Origin: a virus
Length of the DNA: 20,424 nt
Strand: one strand, 5' to 3'
Virus genome (UHGV): UHGV-0172319
The translations under genes and the position numbers were made by a program. Of this stretch, positions 1-10,310 are shown piece after piece; the first letter of the stretch is position 1, and each line of letters opens with the position of its first letter. Under the pieces are notes generated by a model that was not told where the DNA came from, made no database searches, and worked only from the letters and a program-made list of their open reading frames with translations.

Positions 1-296
1 GGTTCTGTCAGCGGCACCTTGATATTTCGTTCTACCCAGGCCAACGCTTTATCGCGTTCGATGGCGTTTACCTGGTCACATTTCGCCTGCGTCAACTTCA
101 TGCCCTTCACTACTGGCTTACCATCGACCATCGTGGCGCCACGGCAAATGGTCCAGATTCCACCGCCATCCCGGTACGCTGTCAGGCTGTTTCCCTCTTT
201 CTCATCGAGAAACTGGTCGAGAATCACCGACGCTGGCGCACCGGCAAGCACCAGTCCCAGAACGGCGGCGCTTAGTTTTGTTTTTGTCGAGGCCAT
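1..296 (-). CDS. Endolysin, phage lysozyme (T4-lysozyme-like muramidase) with N-terminal SAR-type hydrophobic segment; N-terminal part only, gene continues past window start
   Basis: Reverse-strand translation from ATG at 296-294: MASTKTKLSAAVLGLVLAGAPASVILDQFLDEKEGNSLTAYRDGGGIWTICRGAT... Shows the E-x8-D-x5-T catalytic triad spacing of true lysozymes and a Gly/Ala-rich weakly hydrophobic N-terminus. Start lies 1 nt after the holin stop. Not in the ORF track because no stop falls inside the window. Confidence 0.8.
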   Translation of the reverse strand, partial: MASTKTKLSAAVLGLVLAGAPASVILDQFLDEKEGNSLTAYRDGGGIWTICRGATMVDGKPVVKGMKLTQAKCDQVNAIERDKALAWVERNIKVPLTE

Positions 297-297
297 A

Positions 298-612
298 TTA
301 TTTCACTGCCTCACCTGAGATACGTTTCATTGCCTCTGTCACCACCTCAGCGGCAGCAGGGCGATCACGGTCAGGTTTAACAGCCACATCAGCGAGGTAT
401 TTAGCCAGAAGCTGAGTTCTTTTCTTTTCCTCATCAAGCCGCTCACGCTCTTCTTTTCGCTTCGCGTAGTAGGTCTTAATAGTGAAATAGGCCGAGATCA
501 GTGCGCCGAGAATAAAAACATAATCCTGCAAACTCAGAACGGAGAAGAAACCAAGCAGCCCTGACCACCAGTACGGCAAGTTATGTCCATCGGTTGGGTT
601 CATACGTTGCAT
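298..612 (-). CDS. Holin (two predicted TM segments, pinholin-like) with dual-start motif
   Basis: 104 aa; N-terminus MQRM (two in-frame Met separated by Gln-Arg, the classic antiholin/holin dual start); two hydrophobic stretches (LPYWWSGLLGFFSVLSL, YVFILGALISAYFTI) then a charged tail; sits immediately upstream of the endolysin. Confidence 0.7.
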   Translation of the reverse strand: MQRMNPTDGHNLPYWWSGLLGFFSVLSLQDYVFILGALISAYFTIKTYYAKRKEERERLDEEKKRTQLLAKYLADVAVKPDRDRPAAAEVVTEAMKRISGEAVK

Positions 613-746
613 TCCACACCTCCGCTATCGGGGTGCTGTGTGATTAAAATGAATCAGGCTTCCGGGCTCTTTTGTAAAAGTGAAAAAGAAGGTGATTCCC
701 GGAGCCTGAAGATGATGATCACCACAGCGGTATGACGTGATGATCG

Positions 747-1799
747 TTATGTCTTATTCAGTTCGCGGATTTCTTCCACAGTCTGAATAAACCTTTCTGT
801 TTCCAGCTCAACACCGATTGCCCGTCGCCCCAGCGTCATAGCCGCTTTAATGGTTGAACCGGATCCCATGAAGAAATCAGCCACAACATCACCCGGCCTG
901 CTGCTGGCGTTGATGATCTGCTGCAACATGTCTGCTGGCTTTTCGCATGGGTGTTTGCCGGGATAGAACTGAACCGGCTTATGCGTCCAGACATCGGTGA
1001 AAGGAACAGAGACTGAAACAGAAAAGAATCGCCGGAGAGACTTATACTCTTCCAGCAATTCTGAATACTTTCGGTTCAACGAATGCCACGTGGCCACCAG
1101 CTGGTGGTGTGGTGTGTCGAGCTCATTGTTTCGATGCTTATCGAATGCAACCCTGGTGAACAATTCCTGCAGTTTCTGGTAATCCGCTTCGCCTGGCAGT
1201 TGCCATTGGGATGCACCGAACCAGTGGGACACCATGTTCTTTTTCCCGGTCGCATCGGCGATCTGCTTAGAGGAAACCCCCAGCGATTCACGCGCGTCAC
1301 GGAAGTATGAAATTAGAGGCGTCAGCACATGCTGTTTGAGCTCGTTACTTTTCTCCGCGTATCCATCACTCTTGGGCTTATATGGGCCCTGGTAATGTTC
1401 AGCGAAAAGAATGCGCTCAGTCGCAGGGAAATATGACCGCAGGCTTTCTTTGTTGCAGCCATTCCAGCGACCGGAAGGTTTTGCCCAGATGATGTGATTA
1501 AGGACACTGAACCGCTCCCGCATTATGATTTCAATATCAGACGCAAGGCGATGCCCGCAGAACAGGTAAAGGCTACCGGCGGGTTTCAGAACGCGCCAGA
1601 ACTCAGCCAGGTATCCATCAAGCCAGCGTAAAAAATCCTCGTCCCCTTTCCACTGGTTGTCCCATCCTTCAGGTTTCACCCTGAAGTAAGGTGGATCCGT
1701 AACGATAAGGTCAATGGAGTTATCAGGGAGAGAAGCGATGTAATGCAGGGAGTCAGCGTTGATTAACTCAACACTGTTTATTTTTACAGTATTTTCCAT
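747..1799 (-). CDS. Orphan DNA methyltransferase (beta-class amino-MTase, N6-adenine or N4-cytosine)
   Basis: 350 aa; motif IV DPPY near the N-terminus (LIVTDPPY) and AdoMet motif I near the C-terminus (FFMGSGST). No adjacent restriction endonuclease ORF. Confidence 0.85.
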   Translation of the reverse strand: MENTVKINSVELINADSLHYIASLPDNSIDLIVTDPPYFRVKPEGWDNQWKGDEDFLRWLDGYLAEFWRVLKPAGSLYLFCGHRLASDIEIIMRERFSVLNHIIWAKPSGRWNGCNKESLRSYFPATERILFAEHYQGPYKPKSDGYAEKSNELKQHVLTPLISYFRDARESLGVSSKQIADATGKKNMVSHWFGASQWQLPGEADYQKLQELFTRVAFDKHRNNELDTPHHQLVATWHSLNRKYSELLEEYKSLRRFFSVSVSVPFTDVWTHKPVQFYPGKHPCEKPADMLQQIINASSRPGDVVADFFMGSGSTIKAAMTLGRRAIGVELETERFIQTVEEIRELNKT

Positions 1800-2194
1800 A
1801 GATCAGTAAGCGTAACTCTGGTAGGCTCACTATGCTTTTGCGCTAAAGCAGTGGGCCCTGGTTAGCTTGTGACCTGAAAGCATGAGCTGATGGCTGGCCG
1901 GGTGCTACAACACCCACCAGCCGCCCATCTTCACAAAAAGAAAGCCCCGCTTAAACGAGGCATCAAAATCGTTTTAAGTCCGTGGCGTAGAAACCACTCT
2001 TAACACAGTAATACATAAAATGCGGACCGCGTGAGGAAAACAATGGTTTTTTTTAATCCATTGAGTAAAATCAATGCCACTTTGCACACATGTTATCCAC
2101 ACAGTGTGCTTGCAAATTCTCATTTATTTTTTTGAATTTTGTAAATGCTCTAATTTATGGGCTTTTTTTACCGATAGCATCTAAACACTTGTGT

Positions 2195-2218
2195 GGTAAG
2201 TTCTGAATGAACGTTACC
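2195..2218. promoter_or_regulatory. Imperfect inverted repeat (GGTAAGTTC / GAACGTTACC) 35-60 bp upstream of the protease start; candidate operator or 5'-UTR hairpin
   Basis: Read directly from sequence; arms share the GGTAA/TTACC core with the cI operator half-site; lies in a strongly AT-rich divergent promoter region (about 1960-2250). Confidence 0.35.
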
Positions 2219-2253
2219 CCTTGGTTTAAAACTCTTAACATAAGGACATCCGA

Positions 2254-3249
2254 ATGTTTGAGCAGCGGAAAGCTTTGTATGCGCAACTGGAACAAGCACG
2301 CAGTTCAAAAGTATTATGCTATGTAACTGGTGACAGACCAAACCAAGAAGCTCAAATCAGCGCTGATGTATTTGATCTTTTCGTTAACCATTTAGATGTG
2401 ATCGGTGACGTTCAAAAAATTAGTCTTGTGCTCTATACGCGAGGCGGCGACACTTTGACTGCATGGAGCCTTGTAAACCTGCTTCGTCAGTTTTGTAAAG
2501 AACTCGAAATCATAATCCCATCCAAATGTCATAGCTCTGGGACGATCATGTGTCTTGGCGCTAACAATTTGGTTATGACAAAGCAGGCAACCTTAGGTCC
2601 AATCGATCCGAGTGTGAATACACCACTCAACCCTTCGGCCATTATCAATGGGCAGCAACTTCAACTTCCAGTCAGTGTTGAAGAAATCAATGGTTATCTT
2701 GAAGTAGTTAAGCATGATTTGAGTATCAAGGATGATGCCTCACTTGCGCAGATCCTCCTTGCATTAAGTGAAAAGGTTCACCCACTAGTGCTTGGTAAAG
2801 TCTATCGAGCTAAATCGCAGATTCAAATGCTCGCAAGAAAACTACTTTCTCACCAACTCACTGATAGTGAAAGCATTGAGAAAATTGTAAGTTTCCTTTG
2901 TAGTGATTCTGGTAGCCATGACTACACTATAAACAGGATTGAGGCAGTAAACGATTTAGGTCTTACTGTGGAAAAACCAGATGAGCAACTTTACGGCCTG
3001 ATCAAAGAAATTTATGAAGATTTCAAAACTGAGATGCATCTGGGTGAACCTTTTGACCCAAATGCTATCTTAGGAACAGTTAACCAAGCATCGTATGTAT
3101 CTGTTAGAAGCATTTTAGAGGCTCCAGATACATTTTCATATCAATTCCGCACTGAGGGCATGTTACAGCGTTTGCAAACTCCAGGTGTCCCAAGTCAGTT
3201 CGGAATAAATCATAACCTTATCTCAGAAGGATGGGCTCAACATGGATAA
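2254..3249 (+). CDS. SDH-family / ClpP-crotonase-fold serine protease-like protein (moron gene)
   Basis: 331 aa; N-terminal half has the ClpP/SppA-like pattern (LYTRGGDTLTAWSLVNLL..PSKCHSSGTIMCLGANNLVM..LGPIDP); good RBS (AAGGA, 8 nt spacing); clearly lower GC than flanking phage genes; opposite strand to the late operon. Confidence 0.65.
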   Translation: MFEQRKALYAQLEQARSSKVLCYVTGDRPNQEAQISADVFDLFVNHLDVIGDVQKISLVLYTRGGDTLTAWSLVNLLRQFCKELEIIIPSKCHSSGTIMCLGANNLVMTKQATLGPIDPSVNTPLNPSAIINGQQLQLPVSVEEINGYLEVVKHDLSIKDDASLAQILLALSEKVHPLVLGKVYRAKSQIQMLARKLLSHQLTDSESIEKIVSFLCSDSGSHDYTINRIEAVNDLGLTVEKPDEQLYGLIKEIYEDFKTEMHLGEPFDPNAILGTVNQASYVSVRSILEAPDTFSYQFRTEGMLQRLQTPGVPSQFGINHNLISEGWAQHG

Positions 3250-3424
3250 CAAATCATCTACAGGAAACTTTGTCGTCTATACGAATAGGCATACAAATAC
3301 AGCAGCGCCTAAGACAGCAAGCACCCCATCTACTGCTCAAAAAGTTAGTAATAATGGTGTGAATGGCTACAGTAACTTTTTAAGTTGCACAACAGGTTCG
3401 GCCATAAAAAACAGTTTCTAAAAG

Positions 3425-3455
3425 CAACGGCTCATAATGAGCCGTTGTTGTTTCT
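3425..3455. terminator. Bidirectional rho-independent terminator between convergent protease gene and Q
   Basis: Perfect palindrome CAACGGCTCAT..ATGAGCCGTTG (3425-3447) followed by TTGTTTCT on + strand and preceded by an A-tract (T-tract on - strand). Confidence 0.55.
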
Positions 3456-3834
3456 ACTCACATTCTAAACGTATTTCGAGCATGCTAAGGCAACCATCGA
3501 TAAATCCCTCTGCCATCTGGATCTCGATGCGTATCAATTTTTCATCCTTCTTGCGCATTCTCGCTATCTTACGCTTAGAAATGCCATACAAATAATGCGC
3601 TACCAGTAGTGAATGCTCATAAGGCTTTCGCTTCTGAAGTCGGGCTAAGCAACCTTCTATAATAAGGGCATCATCATCGGTGCATGAAAGACGAGTTTTG
3701 CTTGTCTGAGGAAGAATCCCTTTAAAGCCAGCCGCAATAGGTGAGTAATCGACTCCTGAACTATCACTCGCTGCCCAACCACCCCAGCGCTCTAATACCA
3801 TCTGAATATCCCGCATGTAATCTCCACTGTTCAT
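3454..3834 (-). CDS. Late-gene antiterminator Q (QuuD / phage-82-type Q family)
   Basis: Core sequence MRDIQMVLERWGGWAA...IAAGFKG...LVAHYLYG...IQMAEGFIDGCLSMLEIRLE matches the lambdoid Q/QuuD family. Start at 3834 overlaps the upstream stop (ATGA); alternative start at 3816 gives MRDIQ. The longer track ORF to 3954 would overlap the upstream gene and is unlikely. Confidence 0.75.
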   Translation of the reverse strand: MNSGDYMRDIQMVLERWGGWAASDSSGVDYSPIAAGFKGILPQTSKTRLSCTDDDALIIEGCLARLQKRKPYEHSLLVAHYLYGISKRKIARMRKKDEKLIRIEIQMAEGFIDGCLSMLEIRLECE

Positions 3835-4820
3835 GCAAGCACGCCAATAGCAAGCGCGCGATCGATAAAACGAAATATCAACTCCAGCTGCGAGCCGTAT
3901 TTCTCTTCGAATACCACGGTATCCGCATGTAACTCGTCGTGATGCTTTCTGCACAAAGGCAACACCCAGAGGTCATGCGCTTTTGTCCCCATGCCGCCCT
4001 GACCGTGACCTATCAGGTGGTGCGGATCATCAGCCTGCTTACCACAGCAGGCGCACGGCTGGGCCTTCACCCATCGCGTGTATTTCTCATTTTCCCAGCG
4101 TCGGCGCTTCGGGCGTAGCATGAAGCTTTCCGGCGATTCCGGATCAATCCTGAGTGTCAGTACCTTTTTCGCCTTCTCCTGCACAATGCTGGTGGCCGGT
4201 AACGAGGGCACAATATCGCTTTCTCGCATGATGGATTTCGGCTCTTCATCCGGTAGTCGCAGCGCTTTATGTGCAACGCTTTCCGGTATCACGTCACCCA
4301 GATCATTTCTGACCATCCACCAGCACAACTCCGGGAGAGTCAGAACATGCGACTCAGAGAAACCTAAATCTGTTCGAATGACTGACAAAATCCAGGATAC
4401 CAGGTTTTTGCTGGCTATACCTGCAAGCTGTTCCGTGTATTGACCAGCGAGAGTGTGATCGCAGTGCCAGCACAGCCGGATGCTACCAGGCTGATGGTGC
4501 ATTATCGTGAAATTCTTGTCGTGCCATGTTGAATGGGGCCACTGGCATTCGAACTTTTTGTTTAACCAGCCATCAAGCGAAGACAATCCACCAGCGCGCT
4601 GAATAACGCGCTGATTTTCAAATATTCCACTCATTACCGGATCGTCTGCCAGTGGTTGAACCGCTGCCGGCACATGACCAGTATTGTAAGAGGCCATGCT
4701 TTCCGGTTCTGGCTCAAGTAAGACCCGACCGCGCATGAATAGCGGCATCAGTTCAGCACCGGGACGGAAAAGCACAACCCCCATTCGGTGGGCTATTTCA
4801 GGAGTTAACAACGCTCTCAC
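3831..4820 (-). CDS. DUF968-family protein (YdfU-like nin-region protein) with C-terminal Cys/His-rich motif
   Basis: 329 aa; C-terminal CACCGKQADDPHHLIGHGQGGMGTKAHDLWVLPLCRKHHDELH is typical of prophage DUF968 proteins; conserved position upstream of Q. Confidence 0.7.
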   Translation of the reverse strand: MRALLTPEIAHRMGVVLFRPGAELMPLFMRGRVLLEPEPESMASYNTGHVPAAVQPLADDPVMSGIFENQRVIQRAGGLSSLDGWLNKKFECQWPHSTWHDKNFTIMHHQPGSIRLCWHCDHTLAGQYTEQLAGIASKNLVSWILSVIRTDLGFSESHVLTLPELCWWMVRNDLGDVIPESVAHKALRLPDEEPKSIMRESDIVPSLPATSIVQEKAKKVLTLRIDPESPESFMLRPKRRRWENEKYTRWVKAQPCACCGKQADDPHHLIGHGQGGMGTKAHDLWVLPLCRKHHDELHADTVVFEEKYGSQLELIFRFIDRALAIGVLA

Positions 4821-4827
4821 AGCAACC

Positions 4828-5739
4828 TCACCCGACCAGATCGATAAGCTTCATCATCTCAGCAAATTTTGACTCGAAGAAATGTGGCTGAGTCTCGCGC
4901 GGGTTTGCTGGACTGGTAATGTTTTTCCCAAACAGACAGCCTTTCGCAGTAAGCGACCAGAACTTTTTAACTCCATTGATACCTGAACGGCTCTGGCGCT
5001 GTTTCTGCTCAACAATCCCCTGCCGGGACATCATGTGATAGACCTGATTGGCAGTGATCCGGAGATTATTAGCCTTGAGGAGGGCGCTTAGTGATTGCGT
5101 AGGTCGACTAGACCCGTCCTGTGCGCCTGCTGGTGCATCAATTGCATAGTGCGGCATCAGGTCTGGCAGGCCAGCAACTTGCTGCAGTTTGTGGTACGCC
5201 CCAAGCTTTGATGAATTTGAGAGGTTCAGCATTTTGGCGGCTGATTCGAGCAGGATAATACCGGCCTGAATTTTATCTGAAGTTTGTGAATGCGAAGCCG
5301 CATTCTGAGCAGCATCGAACGTTCTGATGACCTTAAGGTTAAAGGATGGGCTAATCCACATTGCATAGGCGTAAACAAGCTCTTTGCAGACGTAGGTTCC
5401 TCCGTTACGCCCCTGAATTGTCATCACCGGAATACTACGGGAATTTCCCGTAGTTTCTTTTTCCAACAATTCCACCAACGCCTGGGTTTCTGGACGCCGC
5501 ATGAACTCATGGACTTCCATTGAACGAGCGGATCGCTTTTCGCCTGAAGCGTTAAGCGCTGCTTTTTGCAGATCGTTAAGACAGTAATTGGATTCAAAAT
5601 ATTGACGTACGGAAACGCCATCAATTACAAGTAACTGATTCATTGTTTTCTCCACTGTTTTAGTGCGAAGGGGACTGCACTCCCGTTTCGCTTGCACCGG
5701 ATAACCATACCCTGAATTACCCATGTTTTGCTCTAGCAA
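4828..5739 (-). CDS. KilA-N domain protein (Rha/antirepressor-like nin-region protein)
   Basis: KilA-N-like segment (...GRNGGTYVCKELVYAYAMWISPSFNLKVIRTF...). RBS GAGGA precedes ATG at 5739; alternative start at 5643 (GGAG RBS) gives 271 aa. Confidence 0.6.
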   Translation of the reverse strand: MLEQNMGNSGYGYPVQAKRECSPLRTKTVEKTMNQLLVIDGVSVRQYFESNYCLNDLQKAALNASGEKRSARSMEVHEFMRRPETQALVELLEKETTGNSRSIPVMTIQGRNGGTYVCKELVYAYAMWISPSFNLKVIRTFDAAQNAASHSQTSDKIQAGIILLESAAKMLNLSNSSKLGAYHKLQQVAGLPDLMPHYAIDAPAGAQDGSSRPTQSLSALLKANNLRITANQVYHMMSRQGIVEQKQRQSRSGINGVKKFWSLTAKGCLFGKNITSPANPRETQPHFFESKFAEMMKLIDLVG

Positions 5740-8755: not shown

Positions 8756-9220
8756 TCACTTCTTTTGACGACGACTGAATAACGCCACAATCGCGCGAAT
8801 TTCTTCTTCACGTGCAGCCAGATGACGTCGGTGATGTTCCTGAATCTCTTCGGCTTCATGTTTTTCAATCACCCCATCCTCAAGTGCTTTCTGGATAATT
8901 TGATCCACCTGCCCTCTTGCAGCTGCTGTACGCATTGCTCGACTGAACAAGTCAACACGGTCTAGATCTTCCAGGCTTGGCAAGTCCACCAGAAGTGCTC
9001 CGCGGCGCTTGGCAAAGTAGTCAGCAACAAATGACGTATTAGAAATGTCTTCCATCGCTTCCAGTTCAGTTACTTCAAAGAACCGGCATCCGTTTTTCTC
9101 GTACAGGTTGTTGTTGAACTGGGTTTCTGACATGCCTAACGCACCAGCCATAGCCTGACGGCCTCCGGGGTACGCCTTGCACATCGCTTTCACTACTTCT
9201 TTCAAGGTTTGCTCTACCAT
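8756..9220 (-). CDS. CII-like early regulatory protein (putative)
   Basis: 154 aa from ATG at 9220 with RBS AAGGA; located immediately downstream of cro as lambda cII / P22 c1 is. The longer ORF start at 9289 would overlap cro. Confidence 0.5.
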   Translation of the reverse strand: MVEQTLKEVVKAMCKAYPGGRQAMAGALGMSETQFNNNLYEKNGCRFFEVTELEAMEDISNTSFVADYFAKRRGALLVDLPSLEDLDRVDLFSRAMRTAAARGQVDQIIQKALEDGVIEKHEAEEIQEHHRRHLAAREEEIRAIVALFSRRQKK

Positions 9221-9245
9221 CTTGTTTTTCCTTTGGTAGTTACTT

Positions 9246-9443
9246 TTACGCTGCTGAATCTGTAGCCTTCTGGTAAAGAGCAGCGTCATATTTCAATTTG
9301 CCTTTTGTGATTCGTTCGATCACGAAGGCCTGTTTCTCTGGAATGACTTCACCCCACCTGCAAACTGCCGGGTGAGAAATACCGAGCGCATATGCGGTTT
9401 TGGATACACCGCCAAAATGCTCAAGAACTTCTGATTTACGCAT
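9246..9443 (-). CDS. cro: Cro-like repressor (P22 Cro family)
   Basis: 65 aa; VLEHFGGVSKTAYALGISHPAVCRWGEVIPEKQAF...KGKLKYD resembles P22 Cro (as recalled from memory, not searched); divergent from cI; RBS GGAGGG. Confidence 0.8.
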   Translation of the reverse strand: MRKSEVLEHFGGVSKTAYALGISHPAVCRWGEVIPEKQAFVIERITKGKLKYDAALYQKATDSAA

Positions 9444-9538
9444 GTTCCCTCCTAGTTAACCTACGCCCTAAAGGTAACAAAAGGTACATTAAATAGCAAA
9501 CAACAGTTACAGGAAAACAATGTAACATTCGTTACATG
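9444..9538. promoter_or_regulatory. OR-like immunity operator/promoter region between divergent cro and cI
   Basis: Contains operator copy GGTAACAAAAGGTACATT (9473-9490) and a related inverted element TGTAACATTCGTTACATG (9521-9538) overlapping the cI start; several GTAAC/GTTAC hexamers. Confidence 0.65.
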
Positions 9539-10198
9539 AAAACAGAGATGAAAGACCGAATCAGATCAAGGCGTGTACAGCTCGATATAACGCAGCAGAC
9601 CCTAGCTAAAAAGCTGGGGGTTAGCCGTGTATCTGTAACAAAATGGGAAAGCGGAACCACAAAACCAGATGGAGAGAACCTTCATCAGTTAGCGCTGGCT
9701 CTGCAAACCACCCCAGAATGGATTCTTTATGGTCAGGGCGATGATGAAAAAGTTGATGACACAAAATTAGTGCCATACTTAAAAACACCAACCGCCGTCC
9801 CAATTATTTCTGCTGTTCAGGCAGGCCTGTGGACTGATACCTATGCATGCTCAAGGCTGACTGATGTGATTTCCTGGACTCAAACAACTGCTAATGTTTC
9901 TGACGAAGTTTTTGGTCTTGTCGTTCGCGGCGAATCGATGACAAACCCACATGGACTCCCTTCAATACCTGAAGGCTCTATCGTAATCGTTGAACCACAC
10001 TATGGTCAGCTAGATGACCTTTATGGGAAGATCGTAGTTGCAGTTCTGGATGGCTCTGCTGAAGCTACGGTGAAAAAGTTAGTATGGGATAGCCCTTATG
10101 CCTATCTCATGCCACTAAATCCAGTGTTTAAACCCATTCAGATTGATGGAAATTGCAGAATCGTTGGAAAGGTTGTTCAGATTACGCAAAACCTATAG
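9536..10198 (+). CDS. cI: CI-type prophage repressor (N-terminal HTH plus C-terminal S24 LexA-like autopeptidase domain)
   Basis: 220 aa; HTH (LDITQQTLAKKLGVSRVSVTKWESG); C-terminal VVRGESM (Ser nucleophile) and TVKKL (Lys) as in lambda CI/LexA; divergent from cro. Confidence 0.9.
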   Translation: MKTEMKDRIRSRRVQLDITQQTLAKKLGVSRVSVTKWESGTTKPDGENLHQLALALQTTPEWILYGQGDDEKVDDTKLVPYLKTPTAVPIISAVQAGLWTDTYACSRLTDVISWTQTTANVSDEVFGLVVRGESMTNPHGLPSIPEGSIVIVEPHYGQLDDLYGKIVVAVLDGSAEATVKKLVWDSPYAYLMPLNPVFKPIQIDGNCRIVGKVVQITQNL

Positions 10199-10218: not shown

Positions 10219-10245
10219 GCCAGCGAGATCGCTGGCTTTTTTTTT
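10219..10245 (+). terminator. Rho-independent terminator downstream of cI
   Basis: GCCAGCGA..TCGCTGGC stem followed by a run of nine T. Confidence 0.6.
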
Positions 10246-10249
10246 ACCC

Positions 10250-10310
10250 AAAAGGTAACAAAAAGTACATTACACACTTGACCATCATGGTAACTAAAGG
10301 TACATTCTTA
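10250..10310 (+). promoter_or_regulatory. OL-like operators with pL-like promoter (-35 TTGACC 10278-10283, -10 TACATT 10301-10306, 17-bp spacer)
   Basis: Two further copies of the 18-bp operator: GGTAACAAAAAGTACATT (10254-10271) and GGTAACTAAAGGTACATT (10289-10306); the latter overlaps the -10 element. Confidence 0.65.

Follow-up and report, generated by a model that had tools for sequence, protein, structure and literature searches.

The viral genome UHGV-0172319, analysed here as a window of 20,424 nucleotides, carries an orphan DNA methyltransferase gene (747-1799, minus strand) and a protease gene (2254-3249, plus strand) back to back. The question raised by this locus is what controls the two genes across the 454-bp gap (1800-2253) between them. 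A first-pass annotation had described the gap as one AT-rich divergent control region shared by both genes, in which a palindrome at 2195-2218 may tie the protease to the lysogenic repressor CI. The ends of the two open reading frames (ORFs) and the gap are as described there. The gap is also regulatory, as was supposed, with two transcription units diverging from it, a methyltransferase gene lacking a Shine-Dalgarno (SD) sequence, and a structured leader. The shared region itself was not recovered. We consider it probable that the gap is a three-piece junction formed by a Q-dependent late promoter (pR') with its terminator, a methyltransferase leader, and an antisense protease cassette.

Three pieces with separate histories

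The gap is divided into the following pieces.

1800-1934, minus strand: leader of the methyltransferase gene, 54.8% GC
1935-2033, minus strand: module of the likely late promoter, 43.4% GC
2034-2253, plus strand: upstream end of the protease cassette, 33.2% GC

Compared with 49.4% GC for the whole window, the strong AT-richness ascribed to the entire gap is true of 2034-2253 and does not extend to the other two pieces. The histories of the pieces have been followed by megablast against phages and 5426 complete Escherichia coli genomes. Positions 1508-1950, comprising the 5' end of the methyltransferase gene and 150 bp upstream of it, are found at ~85% identity in SfV, cdtI, and Stx2c phages, and are matched in 2547 of the 5426 E. 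coli genomes. Positions 1973-3900, comprising the protease, the antiterminator gene Q, and a DUF968 gene, are found at 88% identity in a separate set of only 47 genomes. The breakpoints, 1950 and 1973, coincide with an intrinsic terminator on the minus strand. The protease-Q block of E. coli EC11 directly abuts a holin gene, with the methyltransferase absent. The mosaic structure is therefore observed directly: the gap is the junction of three independently inherited pieces and not a single operator region common to both genes.

A 49-amino-acid ORF (1974-2123, minus strand) straddles the junction between the cassette and the promoter and has been dismissed. An Rfam scan of positions 1-5000 (E <= 1) gave no match, and the leader and the short RNA expected from pR' lie outside the known RNA families. 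No tRNA was found by ARAGORN.

The probable late promoter module

The window is a lambdoid prophage with the early-right and late operons on the minus strand. The late genes are read on this strand, and positions in the late module are given from the inferred transcription start as +1. The features of the middle piece, and the gene for the antiterminator, are as follows.

3454-3840, minus strand: antiterminator Q (PF06530, E = 1.6e-53), distantly related to Q21
2047-2054, minus strand: A8 tract, read from the sequence, at about -48 to -55 from the inferred start
2030-2022, minus strand: palindrome GCGGTCCGC, at -32 to -24 from the inferred start, candidate Q-binding element
2021-2011, minus strand: spacer of 11 bp
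2010-2005, minus strand: -10-like hexamer TACTGT, of the pattern TAnnnT
2004-2003, minus strand: the 2-bp step GT
2002-1994, minus strand: TAAGAGTGG, with the inferred start at G1999 or A1998
1962-2002, minus strand: start of the late transcript, with a small GTGG..CCAC hairpin and a CTTAA motif after the start

The arrangement has been compared across 80 IMG/VR loci (L032-L111) in which Q is 81-94% identical, together with the window and two cargo-free loci, L005 and L006, which are phages without the protease whose Q is 74-75% identical to that of the window. The module is present in 79 loci, in 57 unique versions, and its layout does not change: the palindrome, exactly 11 bp, TAnnnT, 2 bp, and TAAGAGTGG. 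The 11-bp length of the spacer is fixed even though its sequence varies. The hexamer among the 57 unique modules has T at position 1 in 55, A at position 2 in all, and T at position 6 in all, while positions 3-5 are variable. This TAnnnT pattern at a fixed spacing is the signature of a -10 element. The palindrome GCGGTCCGC is invariant across the 79 loci apart from its central T/A, and an A-tract is located upstream of it in nearly all related modules. The A8 tract of the window may serve as an UP-like element.

The same order of elements is observed where no cassette is present. In L005 and L006, at most 40 nt past the Q stop, GCGGTCCGC is followed by 11 nt, CAGTAT, GT, and TAAGAGTGGTTAC, and then by a hairpin and a T run. 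The module is 1423 bp from the Q stop in the window, and 17-40 nt from it in these cargo-free relatives. In VT2-Sakai, a phage of the 933W type, the order is ACGATCGT, 11 nt, TATCAT, GA, TAAGAGTGGTTAC, and then a hairpin, with TACTGT of the window in register with TATCAT of 933W. The Q of the window is 47.5% identical to the 933W/VT2-Sakai Q and 86% identical to the Q of phage cdtI, and is homologous to Q21 in comparison with the Q21 PDB structures (E = 9e-5). More distant Q clades have the same geometry with other palindromes, namely GCGTACGC in Klebsiella phage Kp4865-4, ACAATCGT in PhiR55_1, and ACGATCGT in 933W. A palindrome that changes between Q clades while the geometry is kept is as expected if the palindrome is the Q-binding element.

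The homology extends to a transcription start that has been mapped. Sy et al. 2020 (PMC7547250) studied the pR' region of Sp5/Sp15 by differential RNA sequencing (dRNA-seq) and Term-seq, and the start determined by dRNA-seq is 258 nt from tR', with an RNase E site, GU/AUU, at +173. With +1 assigned to the G of TAAGAG in VT2-Sakai, GUAUU is at +173 and the strong terminator ends at +259, compared with the published 258 nt. Relative to the current RefSeq entry, the coordinates quoted in that paper are shifted by 141 at the start and by 142 at the 3' end, which is also consistent with a start at TAAGAG. A pR' start inside the Q gene was tried as well, and neither GUAUU nor the terminator end fits it. 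Since the TAAGAG mapping fits the published pR' data, the conserved motif holds the mapped pR' start of the 933W-type Q family. Based on these observations, 1935-2033 is likely the late promoter pR' of this phage, and GCGGTCCGC is a candidate Q-binding element for Q of the 933W type, including Q of the Shiga toxin (Stx) phages.

The terminator and the methyltransferase leader

Downstream of the inferred start, the minus strand carries the following features.

1944-1961, minus strand: stem-loop GCCTCG-TTTAAG-CGGGGC of an intrinsic terminator found by a terminator scan, candidate tR', also the mosaic junction
1934-1943, minus strand: TTTCTTTTTG, following the stem-loop
1800-1934, minus strand: conserved methyltransferase leader, 135 nt
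1877-1932, minus strand: predicted domain 1 of the leader, with a GC-rich hairpin at 1892-1922
1800-1875, minus strand: predicted domain 2 of the leader
747-1799, minus strand: orphan N6/N4 DNA methyltransferase, 350 amino acids, with an N-terminal DPPY (PF01555, E = 1e-43; PADLOC MTase_II, E = 6e-147)

The terminator is located at about +39 to +64 of the inferred late transcript. A terminator-like hairpin is present here in 47 of 56 unique related modules, with 24 different stems. In a lysogen, RNA polymerase would start at pR' and stop at this terminator, giving an RNA of ~64 nt. Once the prophage is induced, Q (3454-3840) would be loaded onto the polymerase at pR', and transcription would then continue past the terminator into the methyltransferase gene, the lysis genes, and the remainder of the late operon.

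In 933W/VT2-Sakai (L007, 2983-3005), a terminator-like hairpin with a T7 run is found at +28 to +50 of the pR' transcript. Many relatives (L037, L049, L073, and others) have a second tandem hairpin, GGCTGCC-nnnn-GGCGGCC followed by TTTT, ~20 nt past the first terminator. The window is without this second hairpin and runs directly into the methyltransferase leader. If pR' is constitutive as in the Stx phages, the terminated RNA of ~64 nt (1935-1999) would consist of an A/U-rich single strand followed by the terminator hairpin. By analogy with StxS, this RNA could act as a small RNA (sRNA). It is not a StxS homologue, and blastn with the 258-nt pR' leader and its 74-nt 3' part gave chance matches of 10-15 nt only.

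The first gene past the likely late promoter and its terminator is the methyltransferase, and no restriction partner is adjacent to it. Its leader is ~85% identical and inherited together with the gene in SfV, cdtI, and Stx2c phages and in the 2547 E. coli genomes, or ~47% of the complete genomes. It is conserved in 80 of 80 IMG/VR methyltransferase loci, in which the variable terminator hairpin always stands before it. In SfV, the same leader is found downstream of a much longer Q of 250 amino acids. The leader thus always travels with the methyltransferase, whatever the type of Q upstream. The predicted fold consists of two long irregular hairpins (-56 kcal/mol, z = -2.9). The hairpin that had been pointed out in this leader is present at ~1822-1858, within predicted domain 2, and the lack of an obvious SD sequence holds more widely, since neither the window nor any of the 80 relatives has a GGAG- or AGGA-type SD at a distance of up to 20 nt from the methyltransferase ATG.

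The 349-amino-acid prophage methyltransferase M.EcoGII has been described as silent in lysogens and deleterious when expressed constitutively (PMC5778455). This behaviour fits a gene that is placed behind pR' and a terminator. The leader probably limits or times the translation of an enzyme that may be harmful in the lysogen. Since the methyltransferase side of the gap carries a Q-linked promoter and terminator module, Q antitermination, and not CI, is the regulator to be expected, and the methyltransferase is most likely a late gene under Q antitermination.

The protease cassette and its insertion site

The AT-rich part of the gap is the cassette's own upstream region, placed back to back with pR'. 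The cassette contains the following features.

~2034-3453, plus strand: protease cassette, antisense between the Q stop and pR'
2034-2253, plus strand: AT-rich upstream region of the cassette, 33% GC
2091-2099, plus strand: candidate DnaA box TTATCCACA, conserved in all close relatives aligned
2164-2180, plus strand: TTTTTTTACCGATAGCAT, containing the -10-like TAGCAT at 2175-2180 (TAGAAT in relatives)
2254-3249, plus strand: cargo gene for an SDH-type serine protease of the ClpP fold, 331 amino acids (PF01972, E = 1.6e-14), with the SD sequence AAGGA at 2242-2246
3242-3421, plus strand: ORF of 59 amino acids, rich in Ser/Thr/Asn, overlapping the protease stop (ATGGATAA)
3423-3449, plus strand: cassette terminator from the terminator scan, a 12-pair stem followed by a T run, abutting the Q stop

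The upstream region is conserved only among loci with this protease and ends 2-3 nt from GCGGTCCGC. The sequence TTATCCACA within it is a perfect match to the DnaA-box consensus. TTTTTTTGCCGATAGAA (2164-2180) is the only upstream motif common to the distant protease relatives L026, L027, L028, and L031 (63-67% protease identity). Weak candidates only have been found for a protease promoter, TAGCAT at 2175-2180 and TGgTAAGTT at 2194-2202.

The protease also matches NF047768 (E = 3.6e-19), under the curated cut-off of that family. The 59-amino-acid ORF has no family match and is retained in L034 and L038; this retention, with the overlap of the protease stop, suggests a translationally coupled partner. 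PADLOC gave no match for the protease, for the 59-amino-acid ORF, or for the cargo proteins of cdtI. A scan of GTDB genomes with the protease, covering species representatives, returned three distant matches only (L009, L010, and L011; 51-54% identity), from Brachyspira and Sedimentisphaerales, the latter a metagenome-assembled genome, and none with useful context. These matches suggest a wide horizontal spread of the protease cargo gene.

The cassette has the attributes of a moron, with its own terminator, an atypical composition (33-42% GC compared with 49% for the window), empty sites in L005 and L006, and other cargo in 76 loci. In these 76 of the 80 IMG/VR loci, a stretch of 700-2140 bp separates the Q stop from the promoter module, and its main ORF runs antisense to Q in 75. 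The ORFs belong to at least 12 unrelated families, including TIR_2 (under the Pfam curated cut-off), KAP_NTPase, NYN, DUF6602, and the SDH protease, and several of the cargo families have no Pfam match. The orf53/54 pair of phage cdtI is one of the cargo types at this site. A literature search on a hotspot between Q and pR' found nothing specific. We tentatively suggest that the bases between the Q stop and pR' are a dedicated hotspot at which unrelated one- and two-gene cassettes are exchanged, many of them defence-like and most without a known family, and that the protease is an undescribed exclusion or defence module, a possibility to which we give well under even weight. On this reading, cargo in antisense orientation could be expressed in the lysogen, and upon induction it would be silenced by early-right transcription reading through Q in the opposing direction.

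Alternative readings of the gap

The palindrome on which the link to CI had been based is present, and it has to be compared with the CI/Cro operators of the immunity region.

2195-2218, plus strand: palindrome GGTAAGTTC-TGAAT-GAACGTTACC, 9 Watson-Crick pairs and one 1-nt bulge
9246-9443, minus strand: cro
9468-9535: OR, with operator copies at 9474 and 9522
9536-10198, plus strand: cI, part of the immunity region
10249-10307: OL, with an operator copy at 10290 and a weaker one at 10255

The 2195-2218 palindrome is the best inverted repeat in the gap. It varies at 4 of 24 columns, compared with 27 of 107 in the flanks, and is no more conserved than they are. Only six haplotypes were found across IMG/VR, E. 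coli EC11, and a metagenome scan, the last of which gave 5 loci and no new haplotype. The substitutions are of five types, located in the loop (A13G), in the bulge (G19T and G19A), or changing G-C to G.U on the plus strand (C9T and C18T).

A single divergent control region with 2195-2218 as a CI operator, coupling the protease and perhaps the methyltransferase to lysogeny, would account for several features. The likeness to the half-site is real as far as the 5-mer goes: the repeated operators of OR and OL contain GGTAAC, which occurs 11 times where 5.6 copies are expected (5 of 100 shuffles reach 11), and the outer arms GGTAA and TTACC are invariant in the six haplotypes. However, the likeness ends at the spacing. 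The palindrome has the form GTAAG-N12-GTTAC, with 12 bp between the half-sites, and the real operators have the form GTAAC-N4-G(T/G)TAC, with 4 bp, which is found nowhere in the window beyond OR and OL, the full copies being only those at 9474, 9522, and 10290. EC11 keeps the palindrome, with one change, upstream of the protease, but its heteroimmune repressor is 44% identical with a different recognition region in the helix-turn-helix, and its operators are different, with none of this form. An inverted repeat of equal or better quality is reached in 12% of 300 dinucleotide shuffles of the gap (9% for the 220-bp AT-rich part), the conservation of the palindrome does not exceed that of its flanks, and the methyltransferase side has its own Q-linked promoter module. 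Control of the protease by CI is thus very improbable; the palindrome belongs to the cassette and is not a CI site. Its role would be either that of an RNA hairpin in the 5' untranslated region (UTR) of the protease transcript or that of an operator placed across TGgTAAGTT, a weak extended -10. The former, acting for example as a stabiliser or translational modulator in a transcript starting at ~2187 from TAGCAT/TAGAAT, is a possible but doubtful reading. The five substitution types, all in the loop, in the bulge, or from G-C to G.U on the plus strand only, hint at such a hairpin, the minimum-energy fold of the window uses it, and CCGATAG(A/C)A is the only upstream motif that the distant relatives have in common. 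On the other hand, there are only six haplotypes, and the chance of this substitution pattern is roughly estimated at ~0.03. The z-score of the fold does not go beyond -1.6, the L012 haplotype has a minimum-energy fold without the hairpin, the distant protease relatives have no consistent equivalent, and the putative -10 (TAGCAT) has no matching -35. An operator for a regulator other than CI, of the host or the phage, placed over TGgTAAGTT (2194-2202), we regard as unlikely, although TGGTAAGTT is invariant in all haplotypes and the palindrome, as read from the sequence, would span ~-15 to +10, which is the classical position for a repressor. The cassette offers no candidate regulator, as the 59-amino-acid ORF has no DNA-binding signature. 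In addition, the inner arms vary without DNA symmetry (GTTC/GAAC to GTTT/GAAC or GTTC/GAAT), and the significance of the repeat is marginal.

The assignment of the late promoter has also been weighed against a location elsewhere, with GCGGTCCGC...TAAGAGTGG being a recombination anchor or another kind of site. Promoter prediction on the gap gave a divided result, with no match on the plus strand and TTTACA-18-GAGAAT (2145-2116, minus strand) as the only match passing the consensus scan. That match and the absence of a -35 from the conserved block favour a promoter at this position, or else inside or just after Q. But the spacer of TTTACA-18-GAGAAT has a 9-bp deletion in four relatives (L021, L022, L196, and L199), for which reason it was rejected as a conserved promoter, and the DNA in which it lies belongs to the cassette and is lacking in other members of the Q clade. 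Between the Q stop (3454) and the stem of the cassette terminator (3423-3449) there are only ~4 nt. A late promoter elsewhere is therefore improbable, since TAnnnT at fixed spacings is what a -10 predicts and the homologous position in 933W is a mapped start. The reading of 1935-2033 as pR' with its terminator, between the methyltransferase leader and an antisense cassette, nevertheless has a number of observations against it. The module is without a recognisable -35, having ACGCGG at -34 to -29 where 933W has TTTACG and phage 21 has TTGACA; it has no extended -10, and the consensus promoter scan does not call it. As a result, promoter strength in this clade is unproven. No conserved -10-like hexamer, as would form a sigma-dependent pause element, is found in +1 to +30 of the 57 unique modules. 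The Q-binding element (QBE) of the solved system, phage 21, consists of two directly repeated 8-bp subsites and not of a palindrome, whereas the module of the window offers one 9-bp palindrome and no such direct repeat. The homology by which the start site was placed is to a phage sharing only 47.5% identity in Q. The terminator matches in position the first hairpin of 933W (+28 to +50), which is not named tR' in the available text of PMC7547250, where tR' is located at +258. Covariation lends the structure of the leader only weak support, its alignment having little variation and few compensatory pairs, and unpaired positions vary no more often than paired ones (p = 0.69). Finally, the protease promoter was not located, the consensus scan having found nothing on the plus strand of the gap.

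Neighbouring genes

The remaining features of the prophage that bear on the locus are as follows.

298-612, minus strand: holin-like ORF, beyond the methyltransferase, with a weak Pfam holin match (E = 0.0016)
3831-4820, minus strand: DUF968 gene
8756-9289, minus strand: cII-like gene
~10220-10246: strong terminator after cI

In relatives, holin, endolysin, and spanin genes are located downstream of the methyltransferase position.

Comparison with known systems

The closest known counterparts of the promoter module are the pR' regions of the Stx phages 933W, Sp5, and Sp15, whose Q, of 144 amino acids, belongs to the same Pfam family (PF06530). As in the window, the palindrome is followed by 11 bp, TAnnnT, 2 bp, and TAAGAGTGG, with late genes downstream, and a GTGG..CCAC hairpin and then a hairpin with a T run are found within ~50-65 nt. 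The window differs from 933W in its Q (47.5% identical), in having GCGGTCCGC and not ACGATCGT as the palindrome, and in lacking the TTTACG -35. A 1.4-kb antisense cassette separates Q from the promoter in the window, whereas the 933W promoter is 10 nt past the Q stop, and the window has no homologue of the 258-nt StxS leader or its 74-nt sRNA part. Taken together, the likely late promoter described here is a new addition to the 933W-type class, displaced from Q by inserted cargo.

Phage 21 (6P18-6P1C; OL657228) offers a more distant comparison. Its Q is a distant homologue, a terminator (annotated at +3 to +50) comes very soon after its Q-linked promoter, and its Q site, like the candidate site of the window, is positioned between the -35 and -10 positions. 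In contrast, phage 21 has the consensus TTGACA, a QBE formed by the direct repeat ATTGAGCA, AATGAGCA, and a pause element, TAAGCTG, at +2 to +8, while the window shows a palindrome of 9 bp and neither a -35 nor an identifiable pause element.

The protease cassette resembles the morons known near Q, namely stx, the APSE toxin cassettes, and cdtI orf53/54, in being self-contained, with its own terminator and a lower GC content, and in its location where Q meets the late genes. Exactly the site of the window protease is taken in phage cdtI by a different two-gene antisense cargo. The stx and APSE cassettes, however, are located downstream of pR', on the late strand, and are Q-dependent, whereas the cargo of the window is upstream of pR' and antisense, hence outside the late transcript. 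The methyltransferase, for its part, resembles M.EcoGII by description, not by alignment: both are prophage-borne orphan enzymes of 349-350 amino acids, of the beta class, with an N-terminal DPPY.

Implications for the phage family

With this analysis, an orphan and probably harmful methyltransferase is placed under Q-dependent late control, and a spurious connection to CI falls away. The signature of palindrome, 11 bp, TAnnnT, 2 bp, and TAAGAGTGG locates pR' in phages with a 933W-type Q, the class of promoter from which Shiga toxin is expressed. Of the by-products, the cargo hotspot and the clade-dependent palindrome are of most interest. This palindrome is a concrete candidate for the uncharacterised Q-binding site of the 933W-type class, and the interval from Q to pR' is a recurrent antisense insertion site that could be mined for prophage defence and fitness genes, most of its cargo being without known function.

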